Positions 55,830 to 55,926 of a stretch of 64,000 nt of DNA are shown here, piece after piece. Within the stretch, counting starts at the first letter, position 1, and every line of letters starts with the position of its first letter. The translations under genes and the position numbers were made by a program. Source of the DNA: Xylographa opegraphella. Its lineage: Eukaryota. The notes beneath the pieces were generated by a model. That model made no database searches. It worked only from the letters and a program-made list of their open reading frames with translations, and was not told where the DNA came from. The stretch is taken from contig JALDZX010000004.1 of the NCBI GenBank assembly GCA_022813865.1, positions 434,001 through 498,000 on the forward strand, written 5' to 3'.

Positions 55830-55840
55830 GGTTCGATTCC
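55830..55840 (+). promoter_or_regulatory. Isolated Pol III B-box (ETC-like TFIIIC site) upstream of TFC3
   Basis: GGTTCGATTCC matches the GGTTCGANTCC consensus and ends 86 nt before the TFC3 ATG; no tRNA cloverleaf around it; inverted partial copy at 55886-55876. Confidence 0.65.
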
Positions 55841-55926
55841 GACGATACGCTTCTTTTCCTTGGACTAGGCATGGGCTGATCGAACCTCCTTCTCTCATTG
55901 CTGCGGTGGTGGAGGTGGTGTATATA

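Follow-up and report, generated by a model that had tools for sequence, protein, structure and literature searches.

Is the isolated B-box just upstream of TFC3, the gene encoding the tau138 subunit of TFIIIC, a site at which TFIIIC could limit its own production, or is it a tRNA relic or a chance match? TFIIIC levels set the capacity for tRNA synthesis and affect chromatin boundaries and, to our knowledge, the evidence that TFIIIC can directly control Pol II promoters comes mainly from one yeast case, ETC6 at TFC6. An earlier note on the Xylographa opegraphella DNA considered here, a stretch of 64,000 nucleotides (the window), had drawn attention to this B-box and to an inverted partial copy of it, and had proposed autoregulation. 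We verified the presence of both motifs, at 55830-55840 (+) and 55886-55876 (-). The features of the locus are:

55682..55687, unstranded: CACGTG, a candidate Pol II activator site upstream of the B-box, recurring in orthologues
55826..55850, plus strand: extended B-box, a predicted ETC-type site for TFIIIC tauB, with C at -5, core GTTCGATTC and G/C at +18/+19
55871..55879, plus strand: minimal uORF ATG GGC TGA (Met-Gly-stop), 40 nt past the start of the B-box core and 47 nt before the main ATG
55876..55886, minus strand: GGTTCGATCAG, a partial copy of the B-box in inverted orientation, 41 nt ahead of the TFC3 start and overlapping the uORF stop codon
55927..55993, plus strand: TFC3/sfc3 (tau138) exon 1 with the start codon, matching the N-termini of named Tfc3 proteins
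56252..57123, plus strand: TFC3 exon 2, assigned from ORFs and a B-block_TFIIIC winged helix at about 56728-56934

Ordinary neighbours in the window are:

18877-20043: heme oxygenase-like
20845-24672: DHX29-like helicase
25440-26222: aprataxin-like HIT protein
32653-33891: Zn2Cys6 factor
36044-37870: family B DNA polymerase

The TFC3 gene and its B-box

The identification of the downstream gene as TFC3 in the earlier note is supported by the translation of exon 1, which reads MEGSLDHLLRYLLEEIALCGDQG and resembles named Tfc3 proteins, by the PF04182 (B-block_TFIIIC) domain in exon 2 (E 1e-23), and by a profile of 56 relatives that matches yeast tau138 in the PDB (8ffz_B, 9gc3_A). The base-reading residues R139/S140 of yeast tau138 align with the RS of a conserved QDKRS. 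A GT donor at 55994 directly follows exon 1, the gene extends past the end of the window, and the preceding ORF in the window is ~1.9 kb from TFC3.

The canonical 11-nt B-box, GGTTCGATTCC, at 55830-55840 (+), is positioned 97 nt before the TFC3 ATG (55927). With B-box positions numbered so that tRNA G53 is 0, position 0 of the extended B-box is the G at 55831. Scored with a matrix built from 30 tRNA B-boxes of this genome, it is the top site of the window (17.1 bits); a matrix built from the 33 orthologous elements alone ranks it 4th in the 64 kb (10.9 bits), so that it is the position of the site rather than its score that sets it apart. The window has two matches to the pattern GGTTCGANYCC where 0.15 are expected, a count of 2 being reached by one of 100 shuffles, and the looser GTTCRANYC occurs 8 times against 9.15 expected and so is not enriched. 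Across the 24.7 Mb genome the 11-mer has 113 matches, and a reversed control pattern 112, from which it follows that the B-box is significant solely through its conservation. A second perfect 11-mer, at 62852-62862 (+) within the TFC3 coding region, is probably a chance occurrence.

Conservation in orthologous TFC3 promoters

Orthologues were picked from metagenome contigs by protein alignment, blind to the promoters, and the best 80 of 137 relatives were used, all 80 of which share the peptide pattern QDKRS[VL]PxRT. Protein-based orthologue scans of genome contigs and of viral contigs gave no matches. Start codons were placed with an exon-1 profile, and eight of the 80 loci (L004, L044, L057, L061, L068, L069, L079 and L083), in which the start was absent or had less than 140 nt upstream, were dropped. 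Median protein identity is 42%. In the tree, L014, L016, L019, L022, L023, L028 and L027 group with named Eurotiales and Onygenales; the best named matches of the other clades are to Pleosporales, Hortaea and lichen formers at 35-50% identity, and the clade labels are therefore loose.

The earlier note had proposed conservation in orthologous TFC3 promoters as a check on its idea, and the position of the B-box is indeed kept. Within -140..-56 relative to the start codon, GTTCRANNC is present in 64 of 72 loci and GTTCRA in 69 of 72 (from the best 80 of 137 relatives), with the core at a median position of -94. When the promoters of these best 80 of 137 are clustered at 70% identity, GTTCRANNC is found in this interval in 30 of 36 clusters, and at a stricter 62%, for which the shuffled maximum is 59%, in 20 of 26. 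In eight equally large windows farther upstream of the orthologues, the motif occurs in 0-2 of 28-32; 200 dinucleotide shuffles have it in 1.0 clusters on average and in 6 at most. It is absent from this interval at all 41 control gene starts, which were assigned heuristically in 454 kb of the own genome and are noisy. The -140..-56 bounds were picked after looking at the data and the clusters are related, so that these counts are not independent trials; despite this, the gap between orthologues and controls is large, and the element is real and deeply conserved.

The GTTCRA core is absent at -140..-56 in three of the 36 clusters (L039, L047 and L060), and three further clusters carry A at +8, as does yeast ETC6. 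Lineages without the B-box (L039, L047, L060 and L068) are candidates for feedback that has been lost or has moved to another subunit gene. The orientation of the B-box is reversed in the clade of L050, L064 and L066 and in L004. A second GTTCGA core is located 65-175 nt upstream of the main core in L033, L038, L062, L075, L078 and L006, and these extra cores are possible tandem sites. Upstream of the B-box, at -260..-61, CACGTG is present in 9 of 33 clusters (the window counted) and at 0 of 41 control starts, and CCCCRC in 23 of 33 clusters and at 5 of 41 control starts; both are candidate Pol II factor sites, the window having CACGTG alone.

The inverted partial copy is present, as had been noted, but it does not recur as part of the conserved element: a second core at -55..-21 occurs in one of 36 orthologue clusters (best 80 of 137), in the opposite orientation. 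With 2.8 bits on the orthologue matrix and -1.1 on the tRNA matrix, and with A at -5, +8 and +19, where it fails the conserved positions, it was dropped as a second TFIIIC site and is probably incidental.

Other Pol III factor genes

Six Pol III factor genes were examined in the own genome (TFC3, TFC1, TFC7, TFC8, BRF1 and BDP1; TFC4 and TFC6 are outside this set). No B-box is present at -140..-56 before TFC1, TFC7, TFC8, BRF1 or BDP1, with starts judged from translations, and among these six genes the enrichment is at TFC3 alone. A B-box-like sequence, GGTTCGACGCC, is located ~350 nt before the TFC1 start, on the minus strand (G000:C175, L001 247-257), in an intergene common to TFC1 and a divergent gene, L117, whose translation resembles a PP2A B56 subunit. 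This sequence has C at -5 and +8 and T at +19.

An extended B-box rather than a tRNA

For comparison, we turned to the tRNA genes of this genome, of which there are at least 32; two had no matching core, and the B-boxes of the other 30 were used. These tRNA B-boxes have a pyrimidine at -5 in 30/30, C at +8 in 30/30 and C at +19 in 24/30. The TFC3 elements on the sense strand, taken with no site selection, have a matching profile, with 31/32, 29/32 and 23/32 at these positions, respectively; GTTCGA cores that occur by chance in other parts of the loci have 59/127, 39/127 and 38/127. In the yeast cryo-EM structure, as described in the available text of PMC11724288, tau138 K223 reads the template-strand G47 of tRNA-His, the bases read by tau91 lie 3′ of the B-box and are conserved in ETC sites, and tauB covers about 40 bp. 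G47 is five bases before G52 of tRNA-His, the equivalent of G53, and the base read by K223 is therefore position -5; the tau91 readout would correspond to the conservation at +19.

The earlier note had stated that there was no tRNA around the motifs and had named a tRNA or SINE relic as the reading to exclude. ARAGORN and Rfam scans of the window gave neither a tRNA nor a match to an Rfam family, and a further Rfam run in E-value mode on 55300-56300 also gave none; ARAGORN found a tRNA in 0 of 36 orthologue loci, and Rfam in E-value mode on 5 orthologue loci gave three unrelated matches, far under threshold. The four T-stem pairs around the TFC3 B-box can form in 14, 16, 11 and 12 of 34 elements, compared with 10.0, 13.4, 12.8 and 12.3 in shuffles, the first real pair being at the 95th percentile, and with 28-30 of 30 in the tRNAs of this genome. 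A search 20-110 nt upstream for an A-box gave a tRNA-level score in just 2 of 32 elements; the best score in the window is -1.2, the lowest tRNA score being 7.7, and the mean best score of the orthologue elements is -1.09 compared with -1.15 when shuffled. No RNA structure beyond that of shuffles was found over 55770-55930 (z -0.01). A bacterial promoter scan, not relevant here, gave no match. A perfect A-box (15.6 bits) is present ~39 nt before the B-box in L036 (and L063) and a good one ~106 nt before it in L022, so that A-box and B-box together might form a complete type 2 Pol III promoter directed into TFC3 in these lineages.

The B-box is therefore outside any tRNA, and the T-arm pairing and A-box that would mark a tRNA, a relic or a SINE are missing. 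As in ETC sites, the window has a GTTCRANNC core and a GC end, located outside Pol III genes, with no A-box and with conservation between species and, as for an ETC6-type operator, the predicted site is in the promoter of a TFIIIC subunit gene. A conserved position that is not in a tRNA leaves a TFIIIC site at the TFC3 promoter well supported and, at the sequence level, the idea of the earlier note as well; its interpretation as a whole is partly supported, with autorepression proposed by analogy with ETC6. The extended B-box fits a DNA site for TFIIIC tauB of the ETC type, and TFIIIC very probably occupies it.

A minimal uORF downstream of the B-box

The two-codon uORF at 55871..55879, which does not appear in the earlier note, has counterparts in the orthologues. 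An ATG-NNN-stop is present at -75..-37 in 13 of 36 clusters, and in 6 of 26 at the strict level (best 80 of 137), compared with a mean of 0.55 and a maximum of 3 in shuffles and 0 of 41 control starts. With the window counted, 14 of 18 upstream ATGs in this interval are closed after exactly two codons. The 18 uORF promoters distinguished at the 85% level have 13 different middle codons and all three stops, which fits selection for an ORF rather than for a DNA word. One clade accounts for 11 of the 18; the others, the window among them, are in five other places in the tree. In 17 of 18, the distance from the B-box core to the uORF start is 23-40 nt, and the uORF ends 37-63 nt before the main ATG, a spacing that looks too short for GCN4-type delayed reinitiation. 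As in a conserved regulatory uORF, start, stop and position are kept and the inner sequence varies; the short uORF behind the B-box is conserved.

Where the uORF is missing, most lineages have instead an ATG that is out of frame and lies 7-32 nt before the TFC3 start. Any upstream ATG is present in 34 of 36 clusters, compared with 20.3 in shuffles and 25 of 41 of the noisy control starts, a weak statistic. In L005, L029, L033, L051 and L019, a minimal uORF (at about -60) is combined with an overlapping out-of-frame ATG (-11 to -16), a layout like that of ATF4 but with a much shorter spacing. Upstream ATGs within 100 nt are also present at TFC1, TFC8 and TFC7 of the own genome (L001, L002 and L003, respectively), and the Met-X-stop uORF of the TFC7 leader, at -66, corresponds in position to that of TFC3. 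As these genes also have upstream ATGs, the uORF layer may not be specific to TFC3.

Possible function of the TFC3 site

Conservation gives no sign of the effect of the site, and negative feedback appears the likeliest because of the analogy with ETC6, at which TFC6 RNA becomes twofold higher when the site is mutated or TFIIIC no longer binds, with TBP occupancy varying inversely (PMC3334521). The conserved site and the decoy start codon before TFC3 suggest that TFIIIC limits its own production, and we consider it reasonably probable that the site is an ETC-type operator exerting negative feedback on TFC3. Then tauB (Tfc3 with Tfc6 and Tfc8) would bind the extended B-box at the TFC3 core promoter or the first bases of the leader and, with the A-box absent, TFIIIC would be at TFC3 without Pol III. 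With more TFIIIC than the tRNA-gene sites can take up, the TFC3 site would be filled, Pol II initiation hindered and TFC3 mRNA reduced; when TFIIIC is scarce, the site would empty and TFC3 expression would increase. The minimal uORF, or the out-of-frame ATG just before the start, would hold TFC3 translation low. As a uORF can be selected solely if it is transcribed, at least one transcription start presumably lies within or before the ~40 bp covered by tauB, in which case TFIIIC, when bound, would stand in the way of Pol II as it initiates or begins to elongate. We infer here the negative sign of the regulation, the place of the transcription start and the translation of the uORF.

Alternatively, though this seems rather unlikely, bound TFIIIC might block a short-leader promoter that starts past the uORF, leaving longer, poorly translated mRNAs that contain it, with the loss of TFIIIC opening a short, well-translated isoform and the feedback then acting mostly in protein. 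The start of the uORF 23-40 nt past the core (17/18) places it at the 3′ edge of the 40 bp of tauB in yeast; 5′-extended mRNAs in yeast TFC6 promoter mutants cut Tfc6 protein 17-fold, according to the available text of PMC4228148, and uORF and start-site switches are documented in fungi (excerpts of PMC9604717). Many lineages, however, have just the ATG 7-32 nt before the start, which would be in almost any leader. It is conceivable, if doubtful, that a two-layer feedback on TFC3, in which TFIIIC controls where TFC3 transcription starts as well as how Tfc3 is translated, is common to filamentous ascomycetes. If this two-layer switch is real then, together with ETC6, TFIIIC autoregulation would be general in ascomycetes and would have moved between, or arisen twice on, TFC3 and TFC6.

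That TFIIIC binds as a boundary, as a keeper of a nucleosome-free region or as a positive factor, and not as a repressor, is improbable. ETC and COC sites are barriers or insulators, often in divergent intergenes (available portions of PMC3395662 and PMC12409998), and several orthologue loci have long minus-strand ORFs that end 240-590 nt upstream. The site is, however, tied to the TFC3 start while the upstream neighbours vary in orientation and distance, which points to an effect on TFC3 itself. We regard as very improbable the possibility that the B-box is part of a Pol III unit, or of a tRNA relic (SINE or half-tRNA), that interferes with TFC3. The profile does match tRNA positions 48, 61, 72 and partly 73, a T-run is present 13-24 nt past the core in some lineages, and A-boxes precede the site by 39 nt in L036 and by 106 nt in L022, but the window and 36/36 loci are tRNA-free, T-stem pairing is missing, A-box scores are close to shuffled ones, the orientation flips, in the L050/L064/L066 clade and in L004, and the region around the site in the window (55770-55930) folds as its shuffles do. 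An unrelated Pol II factor with a liking for TTCGAA, or chance, is hardly credible: the 11-mer is not enriched genome-wide and the core is near-palindromic, but the conservation at -5, +8 and +19 is asymmetric, as in tRNA B-boxes, and among the six Pol III factor genes TFC3 alone is enriched.

Comparison with known systems

No report of a B-box or uORF before TFC3/sfc3 was found in the TFIIIC literature searched, most subscription papers and supplements being outside it, and neither is mentioned at TFC3/sfc3 in the available portions of PMC4063703, PMC9638902, PMC2718518, PMC10123115, PMC12409998 and PMC11346459. If TFIIIC does act as an operator-bound repressor of TFC3, the presence of the site before TFC3 in most of the filamentous ascomycete lineages sampled would mean that such feedback is a widespread design. 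The minimal uORF paired with the site suggests that Tfc3 is also limited at the level of translation. The TFC3 alignment also constitutes a natural footprint that is free of the constraints of tRNA folding and yet keeps -5, +8 and +19, in support of the extended tauB readout from cryo-EM.

In Schizosaccharomyces pombe, one COC site may precede sfc3. COC sites, like the TFC3 site, are tRNA-free B-boxes in intergenic or promoter DNA, but these sites, with TFIIIC and no Pol III, are described as boundary and nuclear-organisation elements (available text of PMC3395662 and bioRxiv 10.1101/2020.11.13.381434). GCN4/cpc-1, with its control by short uORFs, and NDC80, whose long isoforms carry uORFs, resemble TFC3 in having a very short uORF, with an unconserved peptide, in the leader of a regulator gene (excerpts of PMC9604717), whereas TFC3 has one two-codon uORF 37-63 nt before the main ATG that is coupled to a putative factor site. 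The ETC1-8 consensus shares with the TFC3 site both the core and a 3′ extension to +19, and the GC at +18/+19 with which the window site ends is also the end of all 8 yeast ETC 23-mers, as aligned by hand from the available text of PMC3395662. Among the orthologues, C at +19 is kept in 24/33 but G at +18 mostly is not (GC in just 3/33), and their pyrimidine at -5 falls outside the yeast 23-mers listed.

The closest parallel is ETC6 in the TFC6 promoter of S. cerevisiae, which is likewise an isolated extended B-box, ~100 nt before the gene for a tauB subunit, with no tRNA and with candidate Pol II activator sites upstream. ETC6 was reportedly described there by Kleinschmidt, LeBlanc and Donze in 2011. 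The two sites differ in that the subunit here is Tfc3 (tau138) and not Tfc6, in that conservation of the TFC3 site extends over several classes of filamentous ascomycetes, that of ETC sites having been described among sensu stricto Saccharomyces, and in that the TFC3 site, a putative operator, has a conserved minimal uORF or an out-of-frame ATG behind it. By analogy, the TFC3 element would work like ETC6, and would be new in the subunit, the taxonomic reach and the uORF.
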